In this document: positions 18,211 to 64,000 of the stretch, in pieces
Position numbering within the stretch: the first letter of the stretch is position 1
Layout of the letters: each line of letters opens with the position of its first letter
Origin: Thermoanaerobaculia bacterium
Lineage (GTDB): Bacteria; Acidobacteriota; Thermoanaerobaculia; UBA5066; Gp7-AA6
Assembly: GCA_038203955.1 (NCBI GenBank)
Contig: JBBRDK010000002.1
Coordinates: 17,424-81,423, forward strand
Direction: 5' to 3'
Length of the DNA stretch: 64,000 nucleotides
Notes under the pieces: model-generated
What the model saw: only the letters and a program-made list of their open reading frames with translations
The model's database searches: none
Told to the model about the DNA's origin: nothing
Translations under genes and position numbers: made by a program

Positions 18211-18303
18211 GTTGAGTTTATTGGAGTTGAGAGTGGGCGGTTCAGAGTTGAGAGTTGAGAGTCCGGCGGCCGGAACGAACGCTCAACGCTGAACGCGCTC
18301 AAC
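18211..18303. repeat. tandem heptamer array (AGTTGAG family) with a partly complementary GCTCAAC half
   Basis: gttgagtttattggAGTTGAGAGTgggcggttcagAGTTGAGAGTTGAGAGtc...gctcaacgctgaacgcgctcaacc. Confidence 0.85.
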
Positions 18304-18408
18304 CTTCCCCCTCCCGCCTCCCGCCCCGTCACAGTAATCTTTTTGCCTGCCTTCGCGTTCTAATGGACGGGCCTGGCGACGTTACGGGCCGGCCAAGGAG
18401 ACCGAGTC

Positions 18409-34974: not shown

Positions 34975-35036
34975 GGAGCTCTCAGCTCTCAGCTCTCAGC
35001 TCTCAGCTCTCAGCTCTCAGCTCTCAGCTCTCAGTC
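34975..35036. repeat. tandem heptamer array (GAGCTCT / CTCAGCT) x ~8
   Basis: Perfect period-7 array between convergent genes; it supplies the TGA stop of the minus-strand gene 35024-35722. Confidence 0.95.
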
Positions 35037-46097: not shown

Positions 46098-46183
46098 GGT
46101 TATCAGATATCAGATATCAGATATCAGTTATCAGTTATCAGTCGGACGGACCGTAAACTCAAGACTGAAAACTGAGAACTGAA
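46098..46183. repeat. bipartite heptamer array: (TATCAGA/TTATCAG)x5, then (AACTGAN)x4
   Basis: ggttatcagatatcagatatcagttatcagttatcagtc...ctcaagactgaaaactgagaactgaagact; complementary halves; TGA on both strands. Confidence 0.9.
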
Positions 46184-46191
46184 GACTCCTC

Positions 46192-46551: not shown

Positions 46552-46565
46552 AACGATTCGAACGG

Positions 46566-46608
46566 ATAACTGATAGCTGATAGCTGATAGCTGATAGCTG
46601 AAAACTGA
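46566..46608. repeat. tandem heptamer array (CTGATAG)x4 + CTGAAAACTGA
   Basis: Perfect period 7; TGA and TAG in every frame on the plus strand. Confidence 0.95.
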
Positions 46609-46610
46609 TC

Positions 46611-47471
46611 ATGGCTTCCCTCCGGGATCGCTGGGCGGACAACGCGGACGGGAAGTTCTACGTCGACCGGACGTGCATCGACTGCGACGCCTGCCGGCGG
46701 ATCGCGCCCACGGTGTTCGCCGAGGCTTCGGACCACTCGTTCGTCGCGCGCCAGCCCTCGGATGAGGCGGAGAAACGCCGCGCCCTGATGGCCTTAGTCG
46801 CCTGCCCGACGGGCTCGATCGGGACATCCCCCCGGGAGAACGCGCGGCCCGGCGTGGAAGCATTTCCCGAAACCGTCGAAGAAAACGTCTCGTTCTGCGG
46901 GTTTACGTCGAAGGACTCCTTCGGCGCGTGGAGCTATCTCATCGAGCGGCCGGGCGGCAACGTGCTGGTCGATTCGCCGCGAGCCGTCGCGCACCTGCTT
47001 CGGGAATTCGAGGCGCGGGGCGGGATCGCCACTCTCTTCCTGACCCACCGGGACGACGTCGCCGATCACGCCGCCTTCCGGCGCCGCTTTTCCTGCGAGC
47101 GCGTCCTGCACGAGGCCGATCGATCCCGGGAGACTTCGGATCTGGAACGGTACCTTTCGGGCGAGGACCGGGTGCCGCTCGCGGACGACCTTCTCGCCAT
47201 CCCGACGCCCGGCCACACACGGGGTCATACGGTGCTGCTCTACCGGGAGAAGTACCTCTTCACGGGCGATCACCTCGCCTGGTCCAGGCGCCGCAACGGG
47301 CTGATCGCCTTCCGGGACGCGTGCTGGTACTCGTGGAAGGAGCAGACGCGGTCCATGGAGCGCCTTCTCGACTACTCGTTCGAGTGGGTGCTGCCCGGAC
47401 ACGGCCAGTGGCATCGCGCGGAATCGGCGGAGCGATGCGCAAGGAGCTCGAGCGGTGCGTCGCGTGGATGA
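46611..47471 (+). CDS. ferredoxin-like [4Fe-4S] domain fused to MBL-fold metallo-hydrolase
   Basis: N-terminal CIDCDAC...CP cluster motif; MBL motifs THRDD/H..D.H...GHTRGH; the C-terminal ~15 aa may be frameshifted (see findings). Confidence 0.7.
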   Translation: MASLRDRWADNADGKFYVDRTCIDCDACRRIAPTVFAEASDHSFVARQPSDEAEKRRALMALVACPTGSIGTSPRENARPGVEAFPETVEENVSFCGFTSKDSFGAWSYLIERPGGNVLVDSPRAVAHLLREFEARGGIATLFLTHRDDVADHAAFRRRFSCERVLHEADRSRETSDLERYLSGEDRVPLADDLLAIPTPGHTRGHTVLLYREKYLFTGDHLAWSRRRNGLIAFRDACWYSWKEQTRSMERLLDYSFEWVLPGHGQWHRAESAERCARSSSGASRG

Positions 47472-47483
47472 AGGGAGTTTGAA

Positions 47484-47516
47484 GCTCTCAGCTGTCAGCT
47501 GTCAGCTGTCAGCTCT
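47484..47516. repeat. tandem heptamer array (CTCAGCT/GTCAGCT)x4-5
   Basis: agctctcagctgtcagctgtcagctgtcagctctc; provides the TGA stop of the GHMP kinase on the minus strand. Confidence 0.95.
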
Positions 47517-48963: not shown

Positions 48964-49617
48964 TTAGTAACCGACCCGGCTCGCGCGGAGGAATCCCGAT
49001 TGCGGGAAGCCGACCCCTTCGACGGTCAACGTCTGGCCTGCCGACTTCGACGTCATCGCGGGGTCGCGGGACATCAGCCTCCACACCTCGCCGTTTTCGG
49101 CGCAGAACGCGGCTTCATGGTGCGCCTGCGGGAGGGGGCAGAGGCCGGCTTCCACCCGGGACTCGCAGTCGAGGCACACGAGAGTTCCCGTCATCCGGCG
49201 GGAGACGAGCGTCGGCCCGTTCAGGGTCGGACCGCGGGAACCCGAAAGGGAGGCCAGGGTCGCGATCCCGGAGGACGCGCTCGAGAGGCTCGCGTCCTCG
49301 GTCTGGAGCCGCCGGCTGGAGACGTCGGCGACTAACGGGACCAGGAGGAACAGGACGACGGCGGCCGTGGCCAGGAGGGGATACTCGAAGCGCGCCGGCC
49401 GAACGTCTCCCTGATGAAGGCGCTGCCTCAGGCGGGTGGGGGCCGGCGAACGATCGCGGTGGGTCCGGAGGACCTGGGCGAGCCCCCGGGCCGAACGCGC
49501 GCGCGCCTCGCAGGGGTCGCATTCGGCAAGGTGTCGCGAGAGCGCCTCGGCCTCGACACTGCAGATGTCCCGCTCGAGGTGAGCGTAGAGGAGGAAGCGA
49601 GCCTGGGCGCAGTTCAT
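48964..49617 (-). CDS. anti-sigma factor (zf-HC2-like Cys/His motif + TM + C-terminal Cys-rich domain)
   Basis: HLAECDPCEARARS... zinc-finger; one TM; C-terminal CxxC...C...C; downstream of the ECF sigma gene. Confidence 0.65.
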   Translation of the reverse strand: MNCAQARFLLYAHLERDICSVEAEALSRHLAECDPCEARARSARGLAQVLRTHRDRSPAPTRLRQRLHQGDVRPARFEYPLLATAAVVLFLLVPLVADVSSRRLQTEDASLSSASSGIATLASLSGSRGPTLNGPTLVSRRMTGTLVCLDCESRVEAGLCPLPQAHHEAAFCAENGEVWRLMSRDPAMTSKSAGQTLTVEGVGFPQSGFLRASRVGY

Positions 49618-49726: not shown

Positions 49727-50368
49727 CTACGCGGCCGGGCTCTTCGGCCGGGTCCGCATCTTGGTCGGCTCGGCGCCCCGGATGTACCCGTGCTGGCGGG
49801 CGTACTTCAAGAGCGCTTTCTCGAGCAGCTTGCGTCCCCGGTACAGGCGCGACATCACGGTGCCTACGGGGCAGTCCAGAATGTCCGCGATCTCCTTGTA
49901 CGAGAAGTCCTCGAGGTCCGCCAGCAGAACCACCATCCGGTAGTCGTACGGCAGCGACTCGAGGGCCTTCTTGACGTCCTCATCCATCACACCCGTGAAG
50001 TACTCGGACTCGGGATCGGCGGCCTGGTCGGTGTTGTCGCGGCGCACGATGCGCTCGAAGGAGTCCTCGATCTCGGCGAAATCCACGCTGCGAGGCTCGA
50101 GCTTCTTCTTGCGGTAGTTGTTGATGAAGGTGTTCTTCAGGATCTTGAAGAGCCACGCCTTCAAGTTCGTGCCCTCTTCGAACTTGTCGTAGTACTTGTA
50201 CGCCTTGAAGTAGGTCTCCTGAACGAGATCCTCGGCGTCCTCCGCGCTCCGGGTCATCCGGTATGCGGTGTTGTAGAGCGAGTCCAGATACGGCATCACG
50301 AGGGAATCGAAGTCCCACGACGAGACGCCGGACTGTTCCGTTTTCGGCTGCACGTTCACCTTTTCCAT
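49727..50368 (-). CDS. ECF sigma factor (RpoE/SigE-like)
   Basis: Region 2 ([20 protein letters not shown]...) and region 4 ([40 protein letters not shown]); ATG at MEKVNVQ with RBS GGGGAGA. Confidence 0.85.
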
Positions 50369-50636
50369 GTCTCCCCGTATTTCAATAATCCTGCCCGCCC
50401 CGTGGGTTCCGGCCGCCCGAAGGAGGCTCGTCCAATAAGCTTCTTGTCTTCTACGGATTACGCCCCGCGAGTGTTGAGGGGGCGACAAGAAGAAATACGC
50501 GTAGAGGCCGGGAATGGTTTCCGATTGGGGTCACTTTGTCCCCGAACGGGGACGGCCGGCCCCCTCAGAGGACGGCCTCTGCCGGGCGATCGGGGGAATA
50601 GGGCTCCGGTGGAGGACGCCAGAGCCCCGGAAGGAC

Positions 50637-50957
50637 CTACTTGTTCTGGATCAGGAAGCAGATGAGCAGGGCGTAGAGCACCAGCGATTCGATCAGCACG
50701 AGGCCGAGGAGCGTCATTCCGCGGATGTCCTTGGCCGCGCCGGGATTCCGGGACATTCCTTCCGAAGCCGCCGCGGTCGCCCTCCCTTGGGCGGTGGCAC
50801 CGGCCGCCGCCGCGATCGCCAGCAGGAAAGCCGCTCCGATGACTCCCCACCGCACTCCCGTGGGGGCCGCCGCGGCCGTCGTCGCGGCCTCCTGCGCGAA
50901 CGCCGGAAGCGCCGAAACGAGCGACACCGCGCACAACAGAACCGTCTTCTTCACCAT
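50637..50957 (-). CDS. atpE: F0F1 ATP synthase subunit c with N-terminal signal-peptide-like extension
   Basis: Helix 1 Gly/Ala motif, loop RNPGAAKDIR, helix 2 LIESLVLYALLICF with the conserved Glu; first ~22 aa MVKKTVLLCAVSLVSALPAFA resemble a cleavable signal. Confidence 0.75.
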   Translation of the reverse strand: MVKKTVLLCAVSLVSALPAFAQEAATTAAAAPTGVRWGVIGAAFLLAIAAAAGATAQGRATAAASEGMSRNPGAAKDIRGMTLLGLVLIESLVLYALLICFLIQNK

Positions 50958-51011
50958 CCGCAGATCTCCTTCTTTGACGCGCCGCCGGCGCGGTGATGCC
51001 GGAAACTATCA

Positions 51012-51046
51012 TGAGCTGTCAGCTCTCAGCTGTCAGCTTTCAGTGA
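51012..51046. repeat. heptamer array (GAGCTGT/CAGCTCT) between atpB and atpE
   Basis: gagctgtcagctctcagctgtcagctttcagtgac; intra-operon. Confidence 0.9.
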
Positions 51047-51062
51047 CTCGATTGATTGTCCG

Positions 51063-51818
51063 TCAGTGCTCCTCGTGCGCGGTGGCGCCGGCGACGTAGA
51101 CCGCGGAGAGCAGCGCGAAAACGTATGCCTGCAGGGCCGCGGTGAACAGGCCGAGGGCCATCATGGGCCAGGGGACCCCGATCGGGACCAGGCTCGCGAA
51201 CACTCCCGTCGTCGTGTGCTCTCCGTAGATGTTCATGAAGAGCCGCAGCGAGAGCGACAGGATCCGGGCGAAGGTTCCGATGATCTCGATGACGAAAAAC
51301 AGCGGCGCGATGAGCAGCAGCGGCCCCGTGAAGTGCTTCAGATACGCCAGCAGGCCGTGCTCCTGGATGCCCTTCCAGTTGAAATAGACGAAGGAGATGA
51401 CGGCCAGGGCCACCGTCGTCGACAGAGAACCCGTCGGCGGCTGGAGGAAAAAGAAGAGCCCGAACAGGTTGGCCACGCCGATGAAGATCGCGAACGTCCC
51501 GATGATCGGCACGTACTTCTCGCCCCCGTGCCCGATCACGTCCTGGCACATGCTCCGAAGACCGGAGACCAGCATCTCGAAGAAGCTCTGGAGCTTGGAC
51601 GGCTTCTCGCGGTCGTACCGGCGCGCCACGAGGGGAAAGAAAATCGCGAAGATCAGAAGAAGCAGGAGGGTCATGATCGCCGCGTCCGGGATCCAGGCCT
51701 CCTTCCCGTCGGGAAAGAAGAACGCGGCCTGGCCGGGGGAAAGCCTCTCGACCGGCGGCTCGCCGAGGAGCCTCTTCAGCAGCCCGTTGAGCGGGCCGTA
51801 CAGGATCGAATGATGCTC
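51063..51818 (-). CDS. atpB: F0F1 ATP synthase subunit a
   Basis: LSLSLRLFMNIYGEH with the conserved Arg; 5-6 TM helices; probable TTG start after GAGGAG. Confidence 0.8.
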   Translation of the reverse strand, partial: EHHSILYGPLNGLLKRLLGEPPVERLSPGQAAFFFPDGKEAWIPDAAIMTLLLLLIFAIFFPLVARRYDREKPSKLQSFFEMLVSGLRSMCQDVIGHGGEKYVPIIGTFAIFIGVANLFGLFFFLQPPTGSLSTTVALAVISFVYFNWKGIQEHGLLAYLKHFTGPLLLIAPLFFVIEIIGTFARILSLSLRLFMNIYGEHTTTGVFASLVPIGVPWPMMALGLFTAALQAYVFALLSAVYVAGATAHEEH

Positions 51819-51834
51819 TTCCAAACGTTTCTCC

Positions 51835-52155
51835 TCACTCCTGACCCGGCCGGCCGATCCAGAGCTCCGGGACGATGGCCAGCACCACGATCGAAAGGCC
51901 GGCCGCGCCGGCAACCGGGTCGAAATCCTTCCAGCGAAACAGAACGACGGCGAAGAGTAACAAACTGGCGGCCGTCACCAGGAGAAGAGGCGCAATGGTC
52001 CTGAATCCGGGCCGATTCTGCTGGGGTATGAGACGCAGGGTCAGTCTCTCGAGCGCGAGAAAGCTGAAAATAACGACGGCTGCCGCGATTGTCAAGGACA
52101 CGCCGGCGCGCCACCCGAAGGCAAAAGCGCCCGCGATCGCGAGCGCGCCGAGCAC
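51835..52155 (-). CDS. ATP synthase protein I-like small membrane protein
   Basis: 106 aa, 3-4 TM; sits between atpZ and atpB as AtpI does in many operons. Confidence 0.5.
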   Translation of the reverse strand: MLGALAIAGAFAFGWRAGVSLTIAAAVVIFSFLALERLTLRLIPQQNRPGFRTIAPLLLVTAASLLLFAVVLFRWKDFDPVAGAAGLSIVVLAIVPELWIGRPGQE

Positions 52156-52200
52156 GAAGGCGCGCCGCCGGACGCGGGAAATGAGGGGGTCGGTGGAGGA

Positions 52201-52234
52201 GTTGTCAGTCTTCAGTTTTCAGTTTTCAGTTCAG
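52201..52234. repeat. heptamer array (TCAGTTT)x4
   Basis: gttgtcagtcttcagttttcagttttcagttcag. Confidence 0.9.
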
Positions 52235-52493: not shown

Positions 52494-52527
52494 GAACTGA
52501 GAACTGATAACTGAGAACTGAAAACTC
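52494..52527. repeat. heptamer array (GAACTGA / TAACTGA)x4-5
   Basis: ccgaactgagaactgataactgagaactgaaaactc; TGA every 7 nt on the plus strand. Confidence 0.95.
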
Positions 52528-52529
52528 TC

Positions 52530-53981
52530 TCAGTACTTGCTCGGCACGCACCGGTGCAGAACGTCCAGCACGCTCTCGGGGGCGACGCCGATCACGAGCG
52601 TTCCGACCGCGCAGATGATGACGGCGGCGGTCAGCGCGTAGGAGACGGGAATCTTCGCGCTGACGCCGTCGGTGAAGAACATCGCCGCCGCGATCCGGAA
52701 GTAGTAGAAGAGGGAGACCGCGGAGGCGAGCACGGCAATGACGGCGAGCCAGGCGTAGCCCGCGTCCATCGCCGCGGTGAACAGGTAGTACTTGCCGATG
52801 AAGCCGGCGGTCGGAGGGATTCCCGCGAGCGAGAGCAGGAAGAGAAGCATGACGACCGCCGCCGGCATGTTGCGCTTCGCGAGACCGTTGAAGTCGGACA
52901 CCGACTCGGCCGCGTAACCCTTCGCCTCGAGGAAGATGATGAGCCCGAAGGCGCCGAAGTTCATGAGCGTGTATGCCAGCAGGTAGACCAGCACGCCCCA
53001 CATCCCGAACTTCGTCTGGAACCCGAGGACGCCCAGGAGCGCGTATCCCGCGTGGGCGATCGACGAGTACGCAAACATCCGCTTGACGTTCGTCTGTAGC
53101 AGCGCGGCGAGGTTTCCCCAGATCATGGTCGCTGCCGCGACGAGGGCCACGATCAATCCCCAGTCGGCCTGGAACTTCGGGAACGCGACGTAGAAGATGC
53201 GCGCGAAGATCGCGTAAGCGGCGACCTTGGGCCCGACGGAGAAGAACGCGGTCACCGGCGTCGGCGAGCCCTCGTAGACGTCCGGAGTCCAGAGATGGAA
53301 CGGGACGGCCGCGATCTTGAAGAGCAGCCCCGCCAGAATCATGAGGATCCCGAGGACGATGGCGTTCGTCCGCTGCATGCCCGTGTAGAGCTGCGCGAGG
53401 TCGGCGAGGCCCATCTTCCCGCCGAGACCGTAGACGAGAGAGAGGCCGTAGAGGAGAACGGCCGACGAGAACGCGCCGAGGATGAAGTACTTGAGCGCCG
53501 CCTCCGTCGACTTGATCTCTCCCTTGAAGTATCCGGCCAGCACGTACGAAGCCAGCGCCATGAGCTCGAGGGCGACGTAGATGGAAATGAGATTGCTCCC
53601 GGACGCCATGAAGAACATCCCGACGCCGGAGAACAGGACCAGCGCGTAGTACTCGCCTCCCGGGTAGGGCGCTTCGCCGACGAACCGCACGGACGCGAGG
53701 ACGGTCAGCACCATCGCCAGCAGCACGAGAAACTTGAAGAAGAGGGCGAAGTTGTCGACCACGAACATGCCGCCGAGAATCGGGCCGTGGGCCCGCTCGG
53801 GCATCGTGGAGACGAAGACGAGCAGCACCCCGGTCACCCCGAGCATCAGCACCGAGAGGAACCCGAAGAGCTCTTCCTTCGCCTTCCCGACGAAGACGCT
53901 CGACGCCAGCAGGATCATCCCCGCGGCGGTCAAGAACAGCTCCGGCGAGAGCAGGAGCCAGTCGGTGGCCTGAACCTTCAC
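52530..53981 (-). CDS. nuoN: NADH-quinone oxidoreductase subunit N
   Basis: 483 aa, 14 TM, NuoN family; GTG start overlaps the nuoM stop (GTGA). Confidence 0.85.
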   Translation of the reverse strand: MKVQATDWLLLSPELFLTAAGMILLASSVFVGKAKEELFGFLSVLMLGVTGVLLVFVSTMPERAHGPILGGMFVVDNFALFFKFLVLLAMVLTVLASVRFVGEAPYPGGEYYALVLFSGVGMFFMASGSNLISIYVALELMALASYVLAGYFKGEIKSTEAALKYFILGAFSSAVLLYGLSLVYGLGGKMGLADLAQLYTGMQRTNAIVLGILMILAGLLFKIAAVPFHLWTPDVYEGSPTPVTAFFSVGPKVAAYAIFARIFYVAFPKFQADWGLIVALVAAATMIWGNLAALLQTNVKRMFAYSSIAHAGYALLGVLGFQTKFGMWGVLVYLLAYTLMNFGAFGLIIFLEAKGYAAESVSDFNGLAKRNMPAAVVMLLFLLSLAGIPPTAGFIGKYYLFTAAMDAGYAWLAVIAVLASAVSLFYYFRIAAAMFFTDGVSAKIPVSYALTAAVIICAVGTLVIGVAPESVLDVLHRCVPSKY

Positions 53982-55606
53982 CGGACCGCCGCTGCCGGGG
54001 CGGCGGGCGCCAGTTCCCCCGACGCCGCCGGGATCCCCGTTCCCGGCGCGCCCGCGTACGCCGGAGGAGTCATCGTCGCGCCTCCGACCGAGCGCACGAT
54101 GTTCTCGGAGGGAACCCGCAGGACGTCGAAGAACGGCTTCGGATAGAGGCCAATCCAGAGAGCGAGAACGACAAGCGGCGCCAGCGTCAGCTGCTCCCGA
54201 AAGGAGAGGTCGGGAAGCTTCGCGTTGGCCGGATTGGAGAGCTCTCCGAAGAAGACGCGCTGGTAGAGCCAGAGGAGGTACGCGGCTCCGAGCACGATGC
54301 CGGTGCAGGCGAAGAGAGCCCACCAGAAATTCTTCGCGAACGCTCCCTGCAGGATCGAGAACTCCCCGATGAATCCGTTCAAGAGAGGAAGGCCCATCGA
54401 CGAGAGCGCCATGATCAGGAAGTACGTGGCGTAGATCGGCATCTGCCGGGCGAGGCCGCCGTACTCGGCGATCATGCGCGTGTGCCGGCGCTCGTAGACC
54501 ACGCCGACTAAGAGGAAGAGGGCGCCCGTCGAGATGCCGTGGTTGATCATCTGCAGGACGCCGCCCTGCACGCCCGCCATGTTGAGCGCGAAGATCCCGA
54601 GCATCACGAACCCGAGATGCGACACCGAGGAGTACGCGATCAGCTTCTTCATGTCCTTCTGGACGAGAGTGACCATGGCGCCGTACACGATGCCGACGAT
54701 CGCGAGGAACACCATCGTCCCTATCACCCACGGCGTCTTCACGGCCTCCGGGAACATCGGCAGGGAGAACCGGACGAAGCCGTACGTGCCCATCTTCAGC
54801 AGGACCGCGGCGAGGATCACGGACCCCGCGGTCGGCGCCTCGGTGTGGGCGTCCGGCAGCCAGGTGTGGAACGGGAACATGGGCACCTTGATCGCGAACC
54901 CGAAGAAGAACGCGAAGAAGAGCCACACCTGGAGCTCCGGCGGCATCGCCGCGGCCACCGCGGTCAGCTTCGGAACGGAGAACGTCGCGGCGTGTCCGAG
55001 GCCCTTGTACCCGAGGAAGCCCGTGGTGTTGTAGAAATAGAGAGCGATGATGCCGAGCAGCATCAGCACCGACCCCGCCAGCGTGTACAGGAAGAACTTG
55101 ATCGCCGCGTAGAGCCGTCGCTGTCCTCCCCACACGCCGATCAGGAAGTACATCGGCACCAGCATGATTTCCCAGAACACGTAGAACAGGAAGAAGTCGA
55201 GGCAGCAGAACGTGCCGATCATGAACGTCTGCAGGAGGAGCAGGAGGATGTAGTACTCCTTCTGCCGCTCCGCGATCGCCGAGTAGGACGAATAGATCGC
55301 GATCACCCCGATCAACGTGGTCAGGAGGATCAGAAGCAGGGTGATTCCGTCGATCCCGAAGTGATAGTCGACTCCGAGAGACGGGATCCACGAAATGCGC
55401 TCGACGAACTGATACCCGGCCTTCGCGCGGTCGAAGGAGAACCAGAGCGGGAGCGAGACCGCAAAGTCGAGAGCGGCGACGGCCGTCGCGAACGCCTTGA
55501 TCGCTCCCGTTTTTTCCTTCGGGATCAGGAACATGATGATCAGCGCGCCGGCGAGCGGAATGTACGCGATCATCGAGAGAAGCGGCAGCTGTTGCAGTGT
55601 GTTCAT
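53978..55606 (-). CDS. nuoM: NADH-quinone oxidoreductase subunit M
   Basis: 542 aa; antiporter-like subunit signature (HTWLPDAH, LIAYSSVSHLG). Confidence 0.9.
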   Translation of the reverse strand: MNTLQQLPLLSMIAYIPLAGALIIMFLIPKEKTGAIKAFATAVAALDFAVSLPLWFSFDRAKAGYQFVERISWIPSLGVDYHFGIDGITLLLILLTTLIGVIAIYSSYSAIAERQKEYYILLLLLQTFMIGTFCCLDFFLFYVFWEIMLVPMYFLIGVWGGQRRLYAAIKFFLYTLAGSVLMLLGIIALYFYNTTGFLGYKGLGHAATFSVPKLTAVAAAMPPELQVWLFFAFFFGFAIKVPMFPFHTWLPDAHTEAPTAGSVILAAVLLKMGTYGFVRFSLPMFPEAVKTPWVIGTMVFLAIVGIVYGAMVTLVQKDMKKLIAYSSVSHLGFVMLGIFALNMAGVQGGVLQMINHGISTGALFLLVGVVYERRHTRMIAEYGGLARQMPIYATYFLIMALSSMGLPLLNGFIGEFSILQGAFAKNFWWALFACTGIVLGAAYLLWLYQRVFFGELSNPANAKLPDLSFREQLTLAPLVVLALWIGLYPKPFFDVLRVPSENIVRSVGGATMTPPAYAGAPGTGIPAASGELAPAAPAAAVR

Positions 55607-55608
55607 GC

Positions 55609-55648
55609 GTTCAGTTCTCAGTCATCCGTTTTCAGTTCTCAGTTTCCG
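55609..55648. repeat. heptamer array (TTCAGTT / TCTCAGT)
   Basis: gttcagttctcagtcatccgttttcagttctcagtttcc between nuoL and nuoM. Confidence 0.85.
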
Positions 55649-55654
55649 TTCGCG

Positions 55655-57877
55655 TCACCGGAAGAGCAGGTACACGGCGACGAGGCAGAAGAGCCCGCCG
55701 CCCATCACGAGGGCGTAGTTCTGAACGCGGCCGGTCTGCGCGCGCCGGAAGCCGCGGAAACCGGCCTGGAGCGTGTTCGCGACGCCGTTGACGAGGCCGT
55801 CCACCACGTACTGGTCGAAGAAGGAAGACAGCCACGAAAGCCCGACGGTCACGTGGCGCGCGCCGTTGACCGCTCCATCGATGACGGTGGCGTCGAAGTC
55901 CCAGAGGAAACGGCCGCCGCCCTTGGCGAGTCCCTGGACGAAGACCGAGTCGTAGGCCTCGTCCACGTAGTACTTGTTGGACACGGCCCGATACACTCCG
56001 GGGAACCGGGCGGCGATGCGTGCCGGTACCGCTCCCTCTCCCTTCGCGTACCAGACGTAAGCGATGGCGAGGCCGATCGCCGCCGCCGCCACGGAGGCCG
56101 CCATCAGGAGGGCTTCGGTCGACGCCGCCGCTTCGTGCGCCGCCGTATGCGCGCCCGCGCCGGCGAGAGGCAGCAGGATCGAATGGAGAAACGCCCCGAT
56201 CCGGTCCCCGCCGCGCACCATCGGAATCCCGACGTAGCCACCCACGACCGACAGGAACGCGAGGACGATCAGGGGGACGGTCATCGAGCGGGGAGATTCA
56301 TGGATCTGCGCCTCCTGCTCGGTTCCGCCGCGGAATTTTCCCCAGAAGGTCAGGGAGACGACCCGCAGCATGTAGAACGCGGTCAGGCCCGCCGTGAAGA
56401 GCGCCGCCGCCCAGAGCACTCGGCCGAGCCACGGGGCGCTCTCGAAGTGCGCCTCGAAAGCCGCGGCGAGGATCGCGTCCTTGGAGAAGAACCCGGCCAG
56501 AAGCGGCACTCCCGCGATCGCCAGCGTCGCGACGAGGAAAGTCCGGTACGTCACGGGTATCTTCGACGCGAGCCCGCCCATCTTGCGGATATCCTGCTCT
56601 CCCCCGAGCGCGTGGATGACGGATCCGGATCCTAAGAAGAGGCAGGCCTTGAAGAACGCGTGCGTCATCACGTGGAACATGCCGGCGACGAAGGCGCCGA
56701 CCCCGCAGGCGAGAAACATGTATCCCAGCTGCGACACGGTCGAGTAGGCGAGCACCTTCTTGATGTCGTTCTGAGCGATGCCGATCGTCGCGGCGAACAG
56801 CGCGGTGAATCCGCCAATCGCCGCGACGACCAGAAGGGCGTCGGGCGAGAGGCGGAAGAGGACGTTGCAGCGCGCGACCATGTACACGCCCGCCGTCACC
56901 ATCGTCGCCGCGTGGATCAGCGCCGAGACAGGCGTCGGGCCCGCCATGGCGTCCGGCAGCCAGACATAGAGCGGAAACTGGGCGGACTTGCCGCACGCGC
57001 CGACGAAGAGGCAGAGGCAGACCAGGGTCAGGTAGGGAGCGTACGCGGCCGGATGCGCGGCCGCCGCCGGGAAGACCTTGCCGAAGTCGAGCGAGCCGAA
57101 GAGGCTGAAGATTCCGAAGATCCCGAGGATGAAGCCGAAGTCTCCGATCCGGTTGACGACGAAGGCCTTCTTGCCCGCATCCGCGGCGGCGTCCCGATCG
57201 TAGAAGTAGCCGATCAGGAGGTACGAGCAGAGGCCGACTCCTTCCCAGCCCACGAAGAGCATCAGGAAGTTCGCGCCCAGCACGAGCAGCAGCATCGAGA
57301 ACATGAAGAGGTTGAGATAGGCGAAGTAGCGCCCGTAGCCCTCCTCGTGCCCCATGTACCCGACGGAGTAGACGTGGATCAGGAAGCCGACGAACGTGAC
57401 GAACGCGATCATCAGCGCCGACAGCGAATCGAGGCGGAACGCGGCGTCTACGAACCACTCACCGGCCGGGCCGTGCACCTGTCCGACGGCCTGGTTCACG
57501 CCGAGCGGCAGCCAGCGGTAGAGAGTCACGACGTGGGCCGCACCCTCCGAGAGGCGGGCGATGCCGACGTCGAAGATCGCGAGAAAAGCGAAGACGCAGG
57601 CGAGACCGACCGAAACGGTTCCGACGACCGTGTGGACCGTCTTGAACGGAATCGGCGAGTGCCCGGCCGGGTCGTGCGCGGGCGACGCGGCGTGCGTGTG
57701 AGCGGGATTCTCGCCGTGCACGGAAGGAGCGGGGGCCCCGGCAGGAGCCGGCGCGCCGTGCGACCCGTGAGCGTCGGCCGCCTCCCCCCGGGTGCGATGG
57801 GAGACCAGGTACAGAACCCCGTTGACGAGGAATCCCGCCAGCGGAAAGAGGGGCACGAGCCAGAGCAGGTCCTTCAA
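55655..57877 (-). CDS. nuoL: NADH-quinone oxidoreductase subunit L (with ~50-aa His/Pro/Ala-rich insertion after TM1)
   Basis: 740 aa; NuoL N-terminus MKDLLWLVPLFPLAGFLVNG; insertion HRTRGEAADAHGSHGAPAPAGAPAPSVHGENPAHTHAASPAHDPAGHSP; long C-terminal amphipathic helix region. Confidence 0.85.
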   Translation of the reverse strand: MKDLLWLVPLFPLAGFLVNGVLYLVSHRTRGEAADAHGSHGAPAPAGAPAPSVHGENPAHTHAASPAHDPAGHSPIPFKTVHTVVGTVSVGLACVFAFLAIFDVGIARLSEGAAHVVTLYRWLPLGVNQAVGQVHGPAGEWFVDAAFRLDSLSALMIAFVTFVGFLIHVYSVGYMGHEEGYGRYFAYLNLFMFSMLLLVLGANFLMLFVGWEGVGLCSYLLIGYFYDRDAAADAGKKAFVVNRIGDFGFILGIFGIFSLFGSLDFGKVFPAAAAHPAAYAPYLTLVCLCLFVGACGKSAQFPLYVWLPDAMAGPTPVSALIHAATMVTAGVYMVARCNVLFRLSPDALLVVAAIGGFTALFAATIGIAQNDIKKVLAYSTVSQLGYMFLACGVGAFVAGMFHVMTHAFFKACLFLGSGSVIHALGGEQDIRKMGGLASKIPVTYRTFLVATLAIAGVPLLAGFFSKDAILAAAFEAHFESAPWLGRVLWAAALFTAGLTAFYMLRVVSLTFWGKFRGGTEQEAQIHESPRSMTVPLIVLAFLSVVGGYVGIPMVRGGDRIGAFLHSILLPLAGAGAHTAAHEAAASTEALLMAASVAAAAIGLAIAYVWYAKGEGAVPARIAARFPGVYRAVSNKYYVDEAYDSVFVQGLAKGGGRFLWDFDATVIDGAVNGARHVTVGLSWLSSFFDQYVVDGLVNGVANTLQAGFRGFRRAQTGRVQNYALVMGGGLFCLVAVYLLFR

Positions 57878-57881
57878 GACG

Positions 57882-58187
57882 TCAGCCCTTCATCGTGTTC
57901 GCCTCTTCCACGTTCAGCGTCTTACGCTGGCGGAAGAGAGAGATGGTGAGCGCGAGGCCGATGGCGGCCTCACCGGCGGCGATCGTGATGACGAACACCG
58001 AGAAGACCTGGCCCGTCAGGTCCGAGAGCCTGCGGGAAAATGCGATGAAGTTGATGTTCACGGCGTTCAACATCAGCTCGATCGACATGAGCACGGTCAG
58101 AAAATTGCGGCGCACGAGCACGCCGAAGAACCCGATCGCGAAGAGGAGGAACGACAGGATGAGGAAATGGTTGATGGTGATTGTCAT
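57882..58187 (-). CDS. nuoK: NADH-quinone oxidoreductase subunit K
   Basis: 101 aa, 3 TM, conserved Glu residues (SIELMLNA, AAGEAAIGLAL). Confidence 0.9.
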   Translation of the reverse strand: MTITINHFLILSFLLFAIGFFGVLVRRNFLTVLMSIELMLNAVNINFIAFSRRLSDLTGQVFSVFVITIAAGEAAIGLALTISLFRQRKTLNVEEANTMKG

Positions 58188-58207
58188 GGGCGCCTCTCGC
58201 GGAGAGG

Positions 58208-58312
58208 CGCTGGGCGCTGGGCGCTGCGCAGCGGGCGCCGGGCGCCGGGCGCTGGGCGCTGGGCGAACGTCGAACGCCCCCGCCTAGCGCCTCCCGCCTC
58301 ACGCCTCACGCC
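58208..58312. repeat. GC-rich heptamer arrays (GCTGGGC/GCCGGGC)x8 followed by (CGCCTCA)x3
   Basis: ggcGCTGGGCGCTGGGCGCTGCGCAGCGGGCGCCGGGCGCCGGGCGCTGGGCGCTGGGCg...cgcctcccgcctcacgcctcacgcc; inside the nuo operon between nuoK and nuoJ. Confidence 0.9.
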
Positions 58313-58320: not shown

Positions 58321-58890
58321 TCAATCCACCTTCTCGAAGGAGCGTTTGCCGAGGACGACCGCGCCGATCATGGCGACGAGCAGGAACACCGACGCGACTT
58401 CGAAGGGCAGAAGGTAGTCGCGGAACATCAGCCAGGAGACGGCCTCCGTGTTGCCGACCACGCGCCCGGCGACGGCGCGGAAGGCGTCGGGATTGCGGGC
58501 GATGTCGGTGAACTTCTCGGTGCCGAGGATGTAGAGGAACGGGATAAGGAATACGGGCAGCAGGAGCAGCGCGATGTCCCACTGGTGCTGGAACGCCGGC
58601 GTGCCGGCCGCCGTGCGCTGGTGCACGAGCATGATCACGAAGAGAAACAGCACCATGATCCCGCCGGCGTAGACGAGGATCTGGACCGCGCCGACGAACT
58701 CCGCCTCCTCCAGGATGAAGACGCACGCGACCAGGAGGAACGACGCCAGCAGGAAGAGCGCCGAGTGGACCGGGTTCTTCGACCAGACGACCGCGATCGC
58801 GGTGCCGAGGATGAGCAGGGCGAAGCCGATGAACAGCCACCCGCCAACTCCCGTCAGGAGCGCGCTGCCCGCCGCCTCCGCCGCTCCCAT
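58321..58890 (-). CDS. nuoJ: NADH-quinone oxidoreductase subunit J
   Basis: 189 aa; NuoJ family TM pattern; ATG overlaps the nuoI stop (TGATG). Confidence 0.8.
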   Translation of the reverse strand: MGAAEAAGSALLTGVGGWLFIGFALLILGTAIAVVWSKNPVHSALFLLASFLLVACVFILEEAEFVGAVQILVYAGGIMVLFLFVIMLVHQRTAAGTPAFQHQWDIALLLLPVFLIPFLYILGTEKFTDIARNPDAFRAVAGRVVGNTEAVSWLMFRDYLLPFEVASVFLLVAMIGAVVLGKRSFEKVD

Positions 58891-59372
58891 CAGCCCTGCT
58901 CCATCACGGTGAAGGGCTTGACGTTCGGCGCCTCCTGCCAGTCTGTGAGCTTGCGGATGTCGAGGTACAGCGAGTCGTTGCGGTCGTACGACGCCATCTC
59001 GTAGGTCTTCGTCGTCAGCCAGATCGACTTGGGAACCGTCGGGCACGCCTCCTCGCAGAGCTGGCAGAACATGCACCGCTTCAGGTCCACGTCGAAGCGG
59101 TCGAGGACCTTGACGCCCTTGCCCGCCTCGTTCTTTTCATTGTGCCAGTCGATGTAGATGATGTTGATCGGACACTCGATCGCGCAGAGCGTGCACTTGA
59201 TGCAGCGCTCCTCGTCCAGGCGGAACATCCCGCGGAACCGATCCGACGGGATCTTCTTCTGCTCCGGGTACTGGATCGTCACCTTCTTGCCGAAGAGGTG
59301 CCGTCCCGTGACCCCGAGCCCGTCGAAGAGATCGAGGAGGGTCAGCTTGTCGAGCCACTTCTTGAGAGCCAT
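58890..59372 (-). CDS. nuoI: NADH-quinone oxidoreductase subunit I (2x[4Fe-4S])
   Basis: CIKCTLCAIECP and CMFCQLCEEACP motifs; 160 aa. Confidence 0.95.
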   Translation of the reverse strand: MALKKWLDKLTLLDLFDGLGVTGRHLFGKKVTIQYPEQKKIPSDRFRGMFRLDEERCIKCTLCAIECPINIIYIDWHNEKNEAGKGVKVLDRFDVDLKRCMFCQLCEEACPTVPKSIWLTTKTYEMASYDRNDSLYLDIRKLTDWQEAPNVKPFTVMEQG

Positions 59373-59401: not shown

Positions 59402-60588
59402 TCAAGCCTTCAAAGCCGACTGCCGCGTGCCCGCCGGCTCGGACGCCAGCCGGTCGCGGCGGGCGAGACCCTGGCGCAGCTTCGCCAGGAAGAACATGAG
59501 CAGGAACAGCGCGCCGAAGATCCACCCGAGCCGCACGAGCCCGTCGGTGCGTCCGGGGGTCCACAGAATCGCGAGCGCGACGATCACGATGTTGACGAGC
59601 GAGAGGGGGATCATCCACTTCCAGCCGAGAGCCATCAGCTGATCGAATCGGTATCGCGGAAACGTGGATCGGAACCAGATGTAGCAGAAGATGAAGAACC
59701 CGACCTTCGCCAGGAACCACACGAAGGGCGGGACGATGTGGAGGAACGACAGCGCCTTGACGTGGCCGAAAGGCGGCAGCCAGCCGCCGAAGAACACGGT
59801 GACGGCCACGCACGAGATGATGATCATCGCCGCGTATTCGCCCAGGAAGAAGAAGGCGAACTTCACCCCCGAGTACTCCGTGTTGAACCCGGACACGAGC
59901 TCGGACTCCGCCTCCGGCAGGTCGAAGGGGTTGCGGTTGGTCTCGGCCACCCCCGACACGAAATAGAGAAAGAAGGAGAGAAGGCCGGGGAAGACGAACC
60001 AGAGCTGCATCCGGTCCTGCCGCATGACGATCTCGACGAGCGAGAGCGACCGCGTCATCAGGAGCACCGCGACGAGGGAAAGCCCCATCGGGACCTCGTA
60101 GGACACGAGCTGCGCGGCCGACCGAAGGCCGCCGAGCATCGAGTACTTGTTGTTGGAGGCCCAGCCGCCGAGGATGATCCCGTACACGCCGATCGAGGTG
60201 ATCGCGAGCAGGAACAGAAGCCCGATGTTGATGTCGGCGACCCAGAGCGGGGTCGAGACGTGCCGCGCCAGCCGGACCGACGGGCCCATCGGGATGACCG
60301 CCAGCGCGGTGAGCGCCGGGATGACCGCCAGCACGGGCGCTAAGAAATGAACGAACTTCTCCGCCCGCGCGGGCGTCACGTCCTCCTTCGTCACGAGCTT
60401 CAGGAGATCGGCGAGCCCCTGAAGCGTGCCCTTGGGCCCGACGCGGTTGGGCCCGAGCCGCACCTGCATGAAGCCCATGATCCGGCGCTCGGCGAGCACG
60501 ATGACGAACCCGACGATCGCGGGAACGACGGCCACGATCAGCAGCACCTTCACGTAGGTCAGGAAGGTGGGCGTGAGGATTTTCATGC
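59402..60588 (-). CDS. nuoH: NADH-quinone oxidoreductase subunit H
   Basis: VLAERRIMGFMQVRLGPNRVGP... NuoH signature; ATG is the internal MKILTPTF. Confidence 0.9.
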
Positions 60589-60602
60589 GTGACCCCCGGG
60601 GC

Positions 60603-60742
60603 CGGGAATCGGGAATCGGGAGCCAAGCGACCAACGGGAGCGAGACGGCCGCGGTACGCCGCGGTCAACTAGATCGGGAATCGAAAAGGCGGGACGCCCC
60701 GGGATTCCCTCGTTTCCCGTTTCCCGTTTTCCGTTTTCCGTC
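60603..60742. repeat. heptamer arrays (GGGAATC)x3 and (CGTTTYC)x4 in the nuoD-nuoH spacer
   Basis: gGGAATCGGGAATCGGGAGCC ... cgtttcccgttttccgttttccgtcc. Confidence 0.85.
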
Positions 60743-60746
60743 CTCC

Positions 60747-61985
60747 TCACCTGTCCACCTCGCCCAGCACGATGTCGATCGTGCCGATCAGGGCAACGAG
60801 GTCTGAGATCAGGTGGCCCTTCGCCATCTTGGGCAGGGCCTGCAGGTTGATGAACGAGGGCGGACGGCAGTGCATCCGATAGGGCCGGTTGCTGCCGTTC
60901 GAGACGCAGTAGAAGCCGAGCTCGCCCTTCGGCGACTCGATCGACGCGTAGACTTCCTCGGCGGGCGGCTTGATCACGCGCGGGACCTTCCCGCGGATCT
61001 CTCCGGGCTCGAGCCGGTCCAGGCACTGGCGAAGGATGCGCACGCTCTGCCGCATCTCCTGGACGCGGACGATGTACCGGTCGTACGTGTCTCCGTTCTG
61101 CCGCGTCGGGACGGCGAAGTCGAGCTCGTCGTAGCACTCGTAGGGCTGCGCCCGCCGCAGGTCCCACTCGATCCCGGACGCGCGGATCAGGGGCCCGGTC
61201 AGGCCGTACTCGACGCACTCCGCGGCGGTCAGCACGCCGATCCCGACCGTCCGCCGCTTCCAGATCCGGTTGTCGGTGAGCAGCTGCTCGTAGTCGTCGA
61301 TGCGCCCTGGGAGGTCGTCGACGAACTCCAGGAGCCGCTCGACCCACCCGGCCGTCAGGTCGAACGGAAGGCCGCCGATCCGCATGCAGTTCAAGGTCAG
61401 GCGCGCGCCGCAATACTCCTCGAAGAAGTCCAGGATCTGCTCGCGCTCCCGGAACGCGTACCAGAAGGGCGTCACCGCCCCGAGGTCGATGCCGGACGTG
61501 CCGAGCCAGACGAGATGGCTCGAGAGACGCTGGAGCTCGTCCAGAATCACCCGGATCAGCTGAGCCCGCCGCGGGACCTCGACGTCGATGAGCTTCTCGA
61601 TCGTCAGGCAGAACGCGTGGTTGTTCGTCGCCGCCGCCACGTAGTCCATGCGGTCGGTGTGCGGAATTCCCATCGGGTACGTCTCGGTCTCGAAGAGCTT
61701 CTCGGTCCCGCGGTGCAGGAATCCGACGTCGGGGAGCGCCTCCAGGATCTTCTCGCCGTCGACCTTCAGCACGATCCGGAGGACGCCGTGCGTCGAGGGA
61801 TGCTGGGGCCCGAAGTTGAGCTCCATCTCCTGCACGTCGAAGAGCGTCGGAGGCTCTCCCGGCGCCGGGGGCGTGTCCCCCTGGGAGAGCGGCCTCGCGA
61901 CGCCGGCCGCTGCCGCGCGCTCCGCGAAGTGCGCGGCTTCGTCGCGCTCGGCCTGAGAGAGCTTCTCGTCAACCATGAGAAACAC
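60747..61985 (-). CDS. nuoD: NADH-quinone oxidoreductase subunit D (49 kDa)
   Basis: NuoD signature throughout (GPQHPSTHGVLR, ...HRGTEKL...); followed directly by nuoH, with no nuoE/F/G. Confidence 0.9.
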   Translation of the reverse strand: MFLMVDEKLSQAERDEAAHFAERAAAAGVARPLSQGDTPPAPGEPPTLFDVQEMELNFGPQHPSTHGVLRIVLKVDGEKILEALPDVGFLHRGTEKLFETETYPMGIPHTDRMDYVAAATNNHAFCLTIEKLIDVEVPRRAQLIRVILDELQRLSSHLVWLGTSGIDLGAVTPFWYAFREREQILDFFEEYCGARLTLNCMRIGGLPFDLTAGWVERLLEFVDDLPGRIDDYEQLLTDNRIWKRRTVGIGVLTAAECVEYGLTGPLIRASGIEWDLRRAQPYECYDELDFAVPTRQNGDTYDRYIVRVQEMRQSVRILRQCLDRLEPGEIRGKVPRVIKPPAEEVYASIESPKGELGFYCVSNGSNRPYRMHCRPPSFINLQALPKMAKGHLISDLVALIGTIDIVLGEVDR

Positions 61986-61987
61986 TC

Positions 61988-62070
61988 GGGAAACGGGAAA
62001 CGGGAAACGGGAAACGAAGGGAATCGAACCGCATGGGCGTTTTACGTTTTACGCTTTCCGTTTCCCGACC
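61988..62070. repeat. heptamer arrays (GGGAAAC)x4 and (CGTTTTA)x2-3 in the nuoC-nuoD spacer
   Basis: cGGGAAACGGGAAACGGGAAACGGGAAACgaagggaatcgaacc...CGTTTTACGTTTTACGCTTTCCGTTTCCC; the two halves are partly complementary. Confidence 0.9.
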
Positions 62071-62078
62071 TCGTTCCC

Positions 62079-62687
62079 TCACGACACCACCTTGCGATTG
62101 GGATCGCTGGCGCCCGGGCCGCCGCCTTCCGGCCATTCTTCCGGGTAGATCGCGGCGCCCGTGTCGATCCCTTCGAGGGGAAAGTCCTTGCGCAGCGGGT
62201 GGCCGTGGAACCCCTCCCAGGTCAGGATCCGGCGAAGGTCCGGGTGCCCCGAGAAGCGGATCCCGAACATGTCGAATGTCTCCCGCTCGCACCAGTTCGC
62301 CGCGAGATAGACGCGCGCGATCGAAGGGACGTCTTCGCCCTCGGCCGCGCCGCATTTGACGCGGATTCGGTCGTTCTTCGAGAAGGAGTAGAAGTGGTAG
62401 ACGACGTCGAAGCGCGGCGCGCGCTCCTTCCAGTCCACCGCCGTAACGTCGACGCAGTAAGCGAAGTCCTCGGCCTGCTTCAGGTGCCGGGCGACGTCGG
62501 CGATCTTCTCGCGGGCGACCGTCACCGTCACCTGGCCCGCGAATTTCTTGGAGGCGAGCACGGCGCCCGGGACGCCCGCGGAAAGAGATACGACCCACGG
62601 ATGGCTCGCCGCGTCCGCCGCGACCAGCTTCGGCTTCGCAACTTCTTTGGCACCGGTCGTGGCCGGGGGCGTGATCTCCTCGGCCAT
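62079..62687 (-). CDS. nuoC: NADH-quinone oxidoreductase subunit C (30 kDa)
   Basis: [22 protein letters not shown] NuoC signature; ATG is the internal MAEEITPP. Confidence 0.85.
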
Positions 62688-62695
62688 GCGATGGT

Positions 62696-63181
62696 TTAAG
62701 AGGCCTTCCGGATGACTTTCATCCGGTCGATCTTCTTCTGGAGCGCCATGATCCCGTAGATCAGCGCCTCCGGCCGCGGCGGGCAGCCGGGAACGTACAC
62801 GTCCACCGGGACGATCCGGTCCACCCCCTGGGTGACGGCGTAGGTCCGGTAGGGCCCGCCGCAGGTCGCGCAGGAGCCCATCGCGATGACCCACTTGGGA
62901 TCGGGCATCTGGTCGTAGAGGCGCTTGACGACGGGAGCCATCTTTTCGACGACGGTCCCTGCGACGATCATGAGATCCGACTGCCGTGGCGTTCCCCGGA
63001 ACACCTCGGCGCCGAACCGGGCCAGGTCGTGCCGGGCGTCCATCACCGCCATCATCTCGATCGCGCAGCACGCCAGGCCGAACTGCATCGGCCAAATGGA
63101 GGACCGCCGCGCCCAGTTGATGACGGAGTCGACCGTCGTCGTCAGGACGTTTTCTTCGAATCTGTTGTCGACGAGACCCAT
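62696..63181 (-). CDS. nuoB: NADH-quinone oxidoreductase subunit B (20 kDa)
   Basis: GLACCAIEM...GSCATCGG...PGCPP N2 cluster cysteines. Confidence 0.95.
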
Positions 63182-63200
63182 GGGACGGTTCGCCCTTCTG

Positions 63201-63571
63201 CTACGCCCAGTCGAGCGCCTGGCGCTTCCAGACGTAGAAATATCCGACGACGAGAATCACCAGGAAAATCACCATTTCGATCAAACCGAAGAGCCCGAGC
63301 CGGTGGAAGAGGACGGCCCAGGGGAAGAGAAAGATCGTCTCGACGTCGAACACCACGAAGAGGACCGCGATCAAGAAATAGCGGACAGAAAAGCGCGTGT
63401 CGAAAGCGAACGTCGTCGCCGCGATACCGGATTCGTAAGGCTCTAGCTTCGCTGGGTTTGGCCGCCGCGTCTGGATGGCCCGAGCGAGAAAAATCGTAGC
63501 CAGAGGCAGAGCCGCCGCCAGCAGGCCCAGAATCAGAATCGGAAAGTAGTTGGCCACCTGAGCGGTCATTC
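63201..63571 (-). CDS. nuoA: NADH-quinone oxidoreductase subunit A
   Basis: KLEPYESGI...FDVE NuoA signature; ATG is the internal MTAQVANYF. Confidence 0.85.
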
Positions 63572-63591
63572 TATCGGAGGGAAAAAAGGAA

Positions 63592-64000
63592 TCAACCCGC
63601 ATTCCCGGCCGTCTCCGACGCGTCGAGAACGGGAGACGTCAAGCCGCGCGACTGGACGAGCACGGAGATCTCATCGCCCATTCCCTCGGGATCGACGAGC
63701 CGGTACGCGCGCCATCGGGCCGCGTCGTCCGGAGTGAAATCGAAGACGCCCGACTCGACGAGGAAGCGGCCCTGGCGCGAAATGCCTTCGGTCGTCAGCC
63801 CCTCCGCCTCTCCCGCCTCGATCAACAGGTCCCAGTGCACGTGCGCGGTCAGGTCGACCTGCCCCGGCCGCGACAGGGGGTCTCCCCGGCGCAGGCCCGC
63901 AAAATGCACCGCGAGGGTCCCGTGCCGGCGCGCCGTCGCATGGTAGAGGACAGGCGAGCGGTGCCCGTAGTCGAAGGAGACGAGGGACCCGTGGCCGAGC
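63592..64000 (-). CDS. class I SAM-dependent methyltransferase, DUF185/MidA (NDUFAF7-like), C-terminal part (gene continues past the right window edge)
   Basis: C-terminal DUF185 pattern ...VDLTAHVHWDLL...EGISRQGRFLVESG...; the ORF runs to the window edge. Confidence 0.6.
   Translation of the reverse strand, partial: LGHGSLVSFDYGHRSPVLYHATARRHGTLAVHFAGLRRGDPLSRPGQVDLTAHVHWDLLIEAGEAEGLTTEGISRQGRFLVESGVFDFTPDDAARWRAYRLVDPEGMGDEISVLVQSRGLTSPVLDASETAGNAG

Follow-up and report, generated by a model that had tools for sequence, protein, structure and literature searches.

An eleven-gene nuo operon without nuoEFG adjoining a MidA/NDUFAF7-family methyltransferase gene in a Thermoanaerobaculia bacterium

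Introduction

Operons of eleven nuo genes, which lack nuoE, nuoF and nuoG for the NADH-oxidising module of complex I, are well known across many phyla (PMC3144371), and NDUFAF7, a methyltransferase of the MidA family, modifies the mitochondrial homologue of one of the subunits that they encode. The present analysis concerns a locus where the two meet: a 64-kb stretch of DNA from a Thermoanaerobaculia bacterium (GCA_038203955.1, contig JBBRDK010000002.1, positions 17,424-81,423), hereafter the window, whose minus strand carries the 3' part of a MidA-family methyltransferase gene and then nuoA-B-C-D-H-I-J-K-L-M-N (63557 to 52530).

The described eleven-subunit enzymes of Bacteroides fragilis, Prevotella copri, Desulfitobacterium hafniense and Bacillus cereus have the same gene set and order, nuoABCDHIJKLMN, and lack nuoEFG (Moparthi & Hagerhall 2011; PMC7002350; PMC11238625). 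That of B. fragilis has no NADH:quinone activity (PMC7002350), and that of Desulfitobacterium is required when cells grow on cytoplasmic donors, its proposed partners being ferredoxin or hydrogenase (PMC11238625). As for the methyltransferase, in mitochondria NDUFAF7 symmetrically dimethylates Arg85 of NDUFS2, the NuoD homologue (PMC3829151); this arginine lies 3.7 Å from cluster N2, and its mutation leads to loss of the cluster (PMC8042128). Arg65 of Nqo4 from Paracoccus denitrificans is symmetrically dimethylated too, and Arg249 of Escherichia coli NuoCD is unmodified in an organism in which MidA was not found (PMC3750175). A related gene cluster has been described in Candidatus Actinomarina, comprising heliorhodopsin, an eleven-subunit nuo operon, NDUFAF7, htpX and pspE, in which the methyltransferase follows the nuo genes and was read by the authors as an assembly factor; this organism holds both eleven- and fourteen-gene nuo operons (bioRxiv 10.1101/2021.02.01.429150).

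Results and Discussion

A Nuo-type enzyme with no adjacent NADH module

Assignment of the minus-strand open reading frames (ORFs) with Pfam, and of their subunit type with the curated thresholds of NCBIfam, recovers all eleven core nuo genes in canonical order on a single strand, with Pfam matches all well over the gathering scores. The gene content and order given in a preliminary description of this DNA, with nuoH right after nuoD, accordingly hold, although the span that it assigned to them (60747-64000) takes in nuoD, nuoC, nuoB, nuoA and the methyltransferase fragment, the remaining operon extending to 52530.

The absence of nuoE, nuoF and nuoG from the locus, likewise claimed there, is upheld by tblastn searches with the E. 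coli proteins as queries (NC_000913.3; E <= 1e-3), which gave zero matches in the window or in the relatives L001-L003, with NuoB and NuoCD as positive controls recovered in the window by the same search at E-values of 1e-61 and 1e-93. The nuoD-nuoH gap (about 112-160 nucleotides) consists of heptamer repeats alone, without an ORF or any remnant of nuoEFG, and by Pfam the 30 further ORFs of the window are housekeeping genes only, with no hydrogenase, formate dehydrogenase or NuoEFG-like protein among them. In three relatives, nuoEFG are likewise absent from the upstream 10 kb. Two assemblies, GCA_020200255.1 and GCA_046262695.1, share the NuoB sequence of the window exactly, and where they overlap it their DNA shows 93-94% identity; in both, an FG-GAP/ASPIC gene in divergent orientation lies upstream of the methyltransferase, with two small ORFs lacking annotation, a gene for malic enzyme, a prolyl-tRNA synthetase and a tetratricopeptide repeat protein farther upstream. 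Hence, nuoEFG are not hidden just outside the window, a placement that would have undone the earlier claim. This layout is kept in a more distant relative (64% methyltransferase identity; 4.46-Mb ERZ25039533 contig_25364), and the eleven-gene nuoD-to-nuoH order in nine more genomes of Thermoanaerobaculia/Acidobacteria, whose methyltransferases are as little as 40% identical.

The likeness to cyanobacterial/chloroplast NDH-1 and to F420-coupled relatives that had been drawn from the sequence extends to gene content but not to the subunit sequences. NuoD passes the NCBIfam NuoD models (TIGR01962, 515 against a cut-off of 459; NF004739, 507 against 360) and NuoL and NuoM also pass their Nuo equivalog thresholds, whereas NuoD falls below the cut-offs for NdhH (393 against 583) and FpoD (360 against 600), and NuoL below those for Ndh subunit 5 (559 against 963) and FpoL (448 against 1050). 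Judged by these curated thresholds, the subunits are of the respiratory Nuo type, and an identity as cyanobacterial NDH-1 or archaeal Fpo is ruled out. Among solved structures, NuoD is closest to mitochondrial NDUFS2 (409 bits) and to the Paracoccus (387 bits) and Thermus (386 bits) proteins, all from NADH-dependent complex I, with cyanobacterial NdhH at 362 bits and the E. coli protein at 317 bits. None of the lineage-specific donor-binding subunits NdhS/O/V or FpoF/O is encoded with the complex, as the eleven genes have no additional ORFs among or next to them.

NuoB has its N2 cysteines, NuoI its two 4Fe-4S motifs, and NuoD the His/Tyr in place of the NiFe ligands, so that the enzyme is a quinone reductase and not a hydrogenase; further, the hydrogenase and Fpo models listed by NCBIfam for the subunits all score under their cut-offs. 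As in the eleven-subunit enzymes described above, the Q-module (NuoB, C, D, I) and the proton-pumping arm (NuoA, H, J, K, L, M, N) are intact, and by analogy with those enzymes an electron donor other than NADH is the better guess here. The present locus is unlike them in being acidobacterial, in its conserved upstream MidA-family neighbour, in the atpI-like, atpB and atpE genes that come after it, and in the heptamer-repeat hairpins between its cistrons.

The adjoining methyltransferase and its proposed target

The ORF at the window edge, whose reading frame was confirmed, matches PF02636 over profile positions 181-248 of 249 with 39.8 bits against a cut-off of 23.3, in keeping with its earlier description as the C-terminal part of a DUF185/MidA-family methyltransferase; the N-terminal ~226 codons fall outside the window edge. 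In close relatives the full-length gene encodes 361 residues and scores 120 bits against PF02636 (L001), and a full-length relative matches in sequence the solved COG1565/DUF185 structures 4f3n (E 7e-34) and 1zkd, with a weaker match to the Dictyostelium NDUFAF7/MidA structure 5ztz. The S-adenosylmethionine (SAM)-binding motif on which the preliminary description had made its assignment depend is present in the relative: the N-terminal half of the L001 protein contains the class I SAM motif I VEVGAGEGKF (ExGxGxG), in which E80, G84 and G86 do not vary, and G82 hardly does, among 12 aligned sequences with identity down to 36%. Additionally, the AlphaFold model of a full-length relative (predicted local distance difference test score 87.5, predicted template modelling score 0.88) superposes over its whole length, in Foldseek, on 4f3n with a template modelling (TM) score of 0.83, on 1zkd with 0.77, and on Dictyostelium MidA (5zu0/5ztz) with 0.80 (E about 1e-22). 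The next-best methyltransferases reach a TM score of only about 0.4, pointing to the two-domain MidA fold as opposed to a generic Rossmann fold. Membership in the MidA/NDUFAF7 family is well supported by sequence and model alike.

On the side of the proposed substrate, Arg92 of NuoD (LHRGTEK), within PDVGFLHRGTEK, aligns with Arg85 of NDUFS2 in an alignment with the ovine protein, so that the equivalent of the mitochondrial target, whose conservation had been suggested as a check, is present; His66 aligns with the quinone-site His59 of mature ovine NDUFS2. The LHRGxEK motif was found in every NuoD/NdhH linked to a MidA gene. The locus is thereby like the NDUFAF7/NDUFS2 and Paracoccus Nqo4 systems in the family and fold of the methyltransferase and in the HRGxE arginine of the NuoD homologue (PMC3829151, PMC3750175). 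It differs in that the complexes of those systems have the N-module, and that activity has been proven for the human enzyme and the mark observed in Paracoccus.

We lean, with moderate confidence, towards a reading in which MidA methylates Arg92 of NuoD during the assembly of an eleven-subunit Nuo-type quinone reductase with a donor other than NADH. The locus encodes a complex I-like enzyme of NuoA-D and NuoH-N with no NADH-oxidising module alongside, and transcription of the nuo operon would start at a separate, conserved promoter immediately before nuoA. MidA would, by analogy, symmetrically dimethylate the arginine of the HRGxE motif packing against N2, and would do so during Q-module assembly, like NDUFAF7 on Arg85 of NDUFS2. 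The product would be a proton-pumping quinone reductase using a non-NADH donor. Gene content and order, methyltransferase family, arginine, adjacency and promoter motif can be read off the DNA and its relatives, whereas we infer the methylation, its target, the donor and the activity of the promoter.

Recurrence of the MidA-nuo adjacency

One genome per GTDB species was scanned with conserved MidA peptides, and the 80 best loci were kept and searched with the Nuo proteins of the window and with E. coli NuoE/F/G; 69 of them had enough downstream sequence. Among these 69, nuoA directly follows a MidA gene of the same strand in eight loci from Thermoanaerobaculia/Acidobacteria and ten from Nitrospirota, and the two sets of MidA form separate clades in a neighbour-joining tree. 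All eight acidobacterial loci have eleven-gene operons, with nuoD followed by nuoH. The fourteen-gene operons of Nitrospirota (L016, L023, L034, L040, L046, L054 and others) likewise present MidA, a hairpin-rich spacer and nuoA, with a NuoD carrying LHRGxEK, but differ in that MidA is only about 34% identical and that nuoE/F/G stand between nuoD and nuoH, as seen in the six loci with long enough contigs (the other four contigs end earlier). Hence, the linkage is not tied to the eleven-gene form.

Beyond these, a metagenome-assembled genome (MAG) of Chroococcidiopsidaceae (L047, 7458-11170) has two tandem ndhH genes (394 and 422 residues), with the MidA start overlapping the stop of the second; three other cyanobacterial MidA loci (L027, L042, L075) show no ndhH within the available sequence. 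In a Methylacidiphilales MAG (L020, 9546-11146) a lone nuoA-like gene (125 residues) sits between a 3-deoxy-D-arabino-heptulosonate 7-phosphate synthase gene and MidA, and other nuo genes were not found within 10 kb. Candidatus Actinomarina, an actinomycetote, shares with the present locus the linkage of an eleven-gene nuo operon to a PF02636/NDUFAF7 gene, but there the methyltransferase comes after nuoN and here before nuoA; its heliorhodopsin and iron-uptake genes were not found at this locus. The acidobacterial, Nitrospirota, cyanobacterial and Actinomarina cases together indicate that the adjacency recurs across phyla and arrangements. This strengthens the functional reading of the linkage, which had earlier been called suggestive of an NDUFAF7-like role.

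In one acidobacterial subclade a 7-kb insertion parts MidA from nuoA. In an Acidobacteriota MAG (L041, 11152-17722) it contains a 1280-residue metallophosphatase-NACHT protein and several ORFs without a family match; it may be a defence-type island, and the idea that it supplies an electron-input module was rejected in view of this gene content. A shorter insert of 1.1 kb, in L013, is a DUF5700 peptidase-like gene.

A conserved, predicted promoter between the methyltransferase and nuoA

The -35 element of a predicted sigma-70-like promoter, TTGATT, overlaps the TGA stop of the methyltransferase (63594-63592), which lies 34 nucleotides from the nuoA start. The window promoter alone is a weak consensus match. 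A -35/-10 pair, TTGAC(T/A), ~17 nucleotides and TA(G/A/C)AAT or GAGAAT, stands directly upstream of nuoA in all nine relatives examined, and four -10 positions are invariant. The distance from the methyltransferase stop to nuoA ranges from 22 to about 200 nucleotides in the relatives, the extra length being made up of unrelated heptamer hairpins.

The relative L001 also helps to place the start of nuoA, as the ATG inside its -10 box precedes an in-frame TAA. This rules out starts at the ATG codons 63602 and 63569 and leaves GTG 63557 as the shared start, ~10 nucleotides past the -10 box, so that the leader would be very short. Judged from the motif, the nuo genes probably have their own promoter, and the methyltransferase, a conserved neighbour from which transcription may read through, is not demonstrably on the nuo transcript. 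Of the linkage to the nuoD-containing operon that had been proposed, the adjoining position and shared strand stand, but operon membership is not supported, given the conserved -35/-10 pair that intervenes. Terminator-like matches in the operon were set aside (12 against 10.2 expected in shuffled sequence), and Rfam gave no match anywhere in the window.

Weighing the alternatives

Several considerations weigh against methylation of NuoD by MidA, which is itself an extrapolation in this lineage. The function of prokaryotic MidA was, as of 2025, "only inferred in silico" (PMC12455994), and the catalytic N-terminal part was read in relatives ~94% identical in DNA, outside the window itself. The proposal requires a conserved arginine, but this does not discriminate, as E. 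coli has the residue without the mark. Moreover, the promoter between the two means that the methyltransferase and nuoA need not be co-expressed, and in 58 of the 80 sampled MidA loci, from Geobacter, Terriglobia, Bacillota, beta- and gammaproteobacteria and others, there are no nuo genes within 10 kb. This promoter and these loci would fit a methyltransferase that adjoins nuo through inherited gene order only and acts on another substrate, protein or DNA, leaving NuoD unmethylated; a preliminary DNA-methylation activity has been reported for the MidA of Wolbachia (PMC12455994), and the NACHT/metallophosphatase insertion has split the pair in one subclade. We regard this as rather unlikely, given that the adjacency is found in separate clades and in arrangements as varied as before nuoA (Acidobacteriota, Nitrospirota), after ndhH (a cyanobacterium), after a lone nuoA (Methylacidiphilales) and after nuoN (Actinomarina), that a NuoD homologue is the only proven substrate of the MidA/NDUFAF7 family, and that the NuoD homologue of P. 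denitrificans bears the dimethyl mark.

The other part of the favoured reading that could fail is the donor, as nuoEFG might be encoded elsewhere in the genome. The subunits are sequence-typical of NADH-dependent complex I, with NuoD, NuoL and NuoM passing the thresholds for NADH-quinone oxidoreductase subunits and the best solved relatives of NuoD being those of mitochondria, Paracoccus and Thermus, which keeps this alternative in play against a non-NADH donor; the pairing of eleven- and fourteen-gene operons in Candidatus Actinomarina provides a precedent. Set against it are the lack of E/F/G homologues in the window and in the upstream flanks of the relatives, the stable retention of the eleven-gene order across the class, and the eleven-subunit enzyme of B. 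fragilis, which has no NADH activity. On balance, a distant nuoEFG set appears improbable, though a real prospect.

Implications

The locus touches on two questions, namely the electron source of the widespread eleven-subunit complex I, which it does not answer, and the purpose of the dimethyl-arginine beside N2. The comparative evidence extends MidA-NuoD linkage far outside mitochondria and alphaproteobacteria, also to enzymes that lack an NADH module, which suggests that the methyl-arginine would serve the Q-module, i.e., the N2/quinone site, and not NADH oxidation. It is conceivable, and we put it forward tentatively as falling somewhat short of an even chance, that MidA methylation of NuoD/NdhH is an old and widespread bacterial maturation step independent of the NADH module. 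If so, the step would work in eleven-subunit (Acidobacteriota, Actinomycetota), fourteen-subunit (Nitrospirota) and possibly cyanobacterial NDH-1 enzymes and would not be a specifically proteobacterial or mitochondrial trait, and the state of N2, and perhaps its redox potential, would be predictable across bacteria from whether MidA is present. E. coli, with the arginine, without the mark and with MidA not found, offers a simple test system for bacterial MidA. The eleven-subunit form and its link to MidA are already in the literature; what is modestly new is the comparative spread of the MidA-NuoD coupling.

Layout of the locus

Table 1. Positions of the methyltransferase, promoter, nuo genes and spacers in the window
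Feature	Position	Strand	Evidence and remarks
MidA/NDUFAF7-family SAM methyltransferase, 3' part	63592-63999	minus	PF02636 (Methyltransf_28), COG1565; 135 codons and stop
Sigma-70-like promoter, predicted	63568-63595	minus	TTGATT 63595-63590, 16-nucleotide spacer, TAGAAT 63573-63568; consensus scan
nuoA	63201-63557	minus	PF00507; 118 residues from probable GTG start 63557; longest ORF to 63602
nuoB	62696-63181	minus	PF01058; TIGR01957 246 bits against 142.7; CCxxE, C and CP cysteine motifs; N2-cluster subunit
nuoC	62079-62687	minus	202 residues; PF00329; TIGR01961 146.8 against 122.45
nuoC-nuoD spacer	61986-62068	minus	Inverted heptamer arrays, (CGGGAAA)n on plus strand; imperfect hairpin
nuoD	60747-61985	minus	PF00346; 412 residues from GTG 61985 or 409 from ATG 61976
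nuoD-nuoH spacer	60587-60746	minus	Heptamer arrays 60711-60741 and 60603-60621
nuoH	59402-60634	minus	PF00146; NF004741 360.9 against 305; probable start ATG 60586, 394 residues
nuoI	58890-59372	minus	Fer4 families; two CxxCxxCxxxCP 4Fe-4S motifs
nuoJ	58321-58890	minus	PF00499
nuoK	57882-58187	minus	PF00420
nuoL	55655-57877	minus	740 residues; PF00361, PF00662, PF01010; NF005141 712.8 against 556
nuoM	53978-55606	minus	PF00361; NF004499 594 against 585
nuoN	52530-53981	minus	483 residues; PF00361; TIGR01770 448 against 332.6; GTG start overlaps nuoM stop

Some gene boundaries and assignments in Table 1 draw on relatives or invite comment. The translation of the N-terminal extension of NuoD is conserved in L005 and L006, and in L001 nuoH is also called as a gene of 394 residues and nuoA as one of 118. 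The best NCBIfam matches of nuoI are NuoI models, none of which attains its cut-off. NuoL has a low-complexity insert rich in His, Ala and Pro at residues ~28-80 (~55 residues), past the first helix, which is not in the NuoL models.

On the 3' side of nuoN and on the same strand, an ORF weakly resembling ATP-synt_I (51835-52155) is followed by atpB (subunit a; 51063-51914) and atpE (subunit c; 50637-50957), with atpF not among the genes of this stretch (50637-52155); the arrangement looks like a split F-type ATPase operon. Beyond atpE come an extracytoplasmic function sigma factor (49727-50488) and a zf-HC2 anti-sigma ORF (48964-49617), and ~3 kb past the end of the nuo/atp row a plus-strand ORF (46602-47468) encodes a fusion of a Fer4_13 single-cluster ferredoxin domain with a metallo-beta-lactamase domain. 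On the methyltransferase side, L003 has a gene for an M48 (HtpX-like) peptidase (5891-6739) ~3 kb upstream of MidA, which is not at that position in L001 and L002; htpX adjoins NDUFAF7 in Candidatus Actinomarina too.

Heptamer repeats

Around 30 tandem arrays of 7-nucleotide units (2.6-8.6 copies) are spread across the window, nearly all of them intergenic and including most of the nuo/atp gaps. Examples are found at 3255-3272, 11129-11191, 18224-18325, 34977-35034, 46101-46187, 46565-46609, 47483-47514, 51014-51043, 52200-52231, 52494-52526, 55611-55644, 58206-58312, 60603-60741 and 61987-62063, with units such as AGCTGTC, AGTTTTC, GAACTGA, TATCAGA, CGGGAAA and GGCGCTG. Seven is the commonest repeat period of the window, at a density of 4.7 arrays per 10 kb, whereas most other loci have ~1 or fewer. 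Hairpins that bulge every 7 nucleotides are formed by some arrays, and others do not fold; the predicted RNA folds reach -39.7 kcal/mol (z = -2.4) in the nuoC-nuoD gap and -86 kcal/mol (z = -3.3) in the nuoJ-nuoK gap. Similar hairpins occupy the MidA-nuoA spacer in relatives and in Nitrospira genomes, and the (G/A)AACTGA units are reminiscent of the TAACTGA repeats reported between genes of Beggiatoaceae (PMC4679880) and of the short tandemly repeated repetitive (STRR) heptamers of cyanobacteria.

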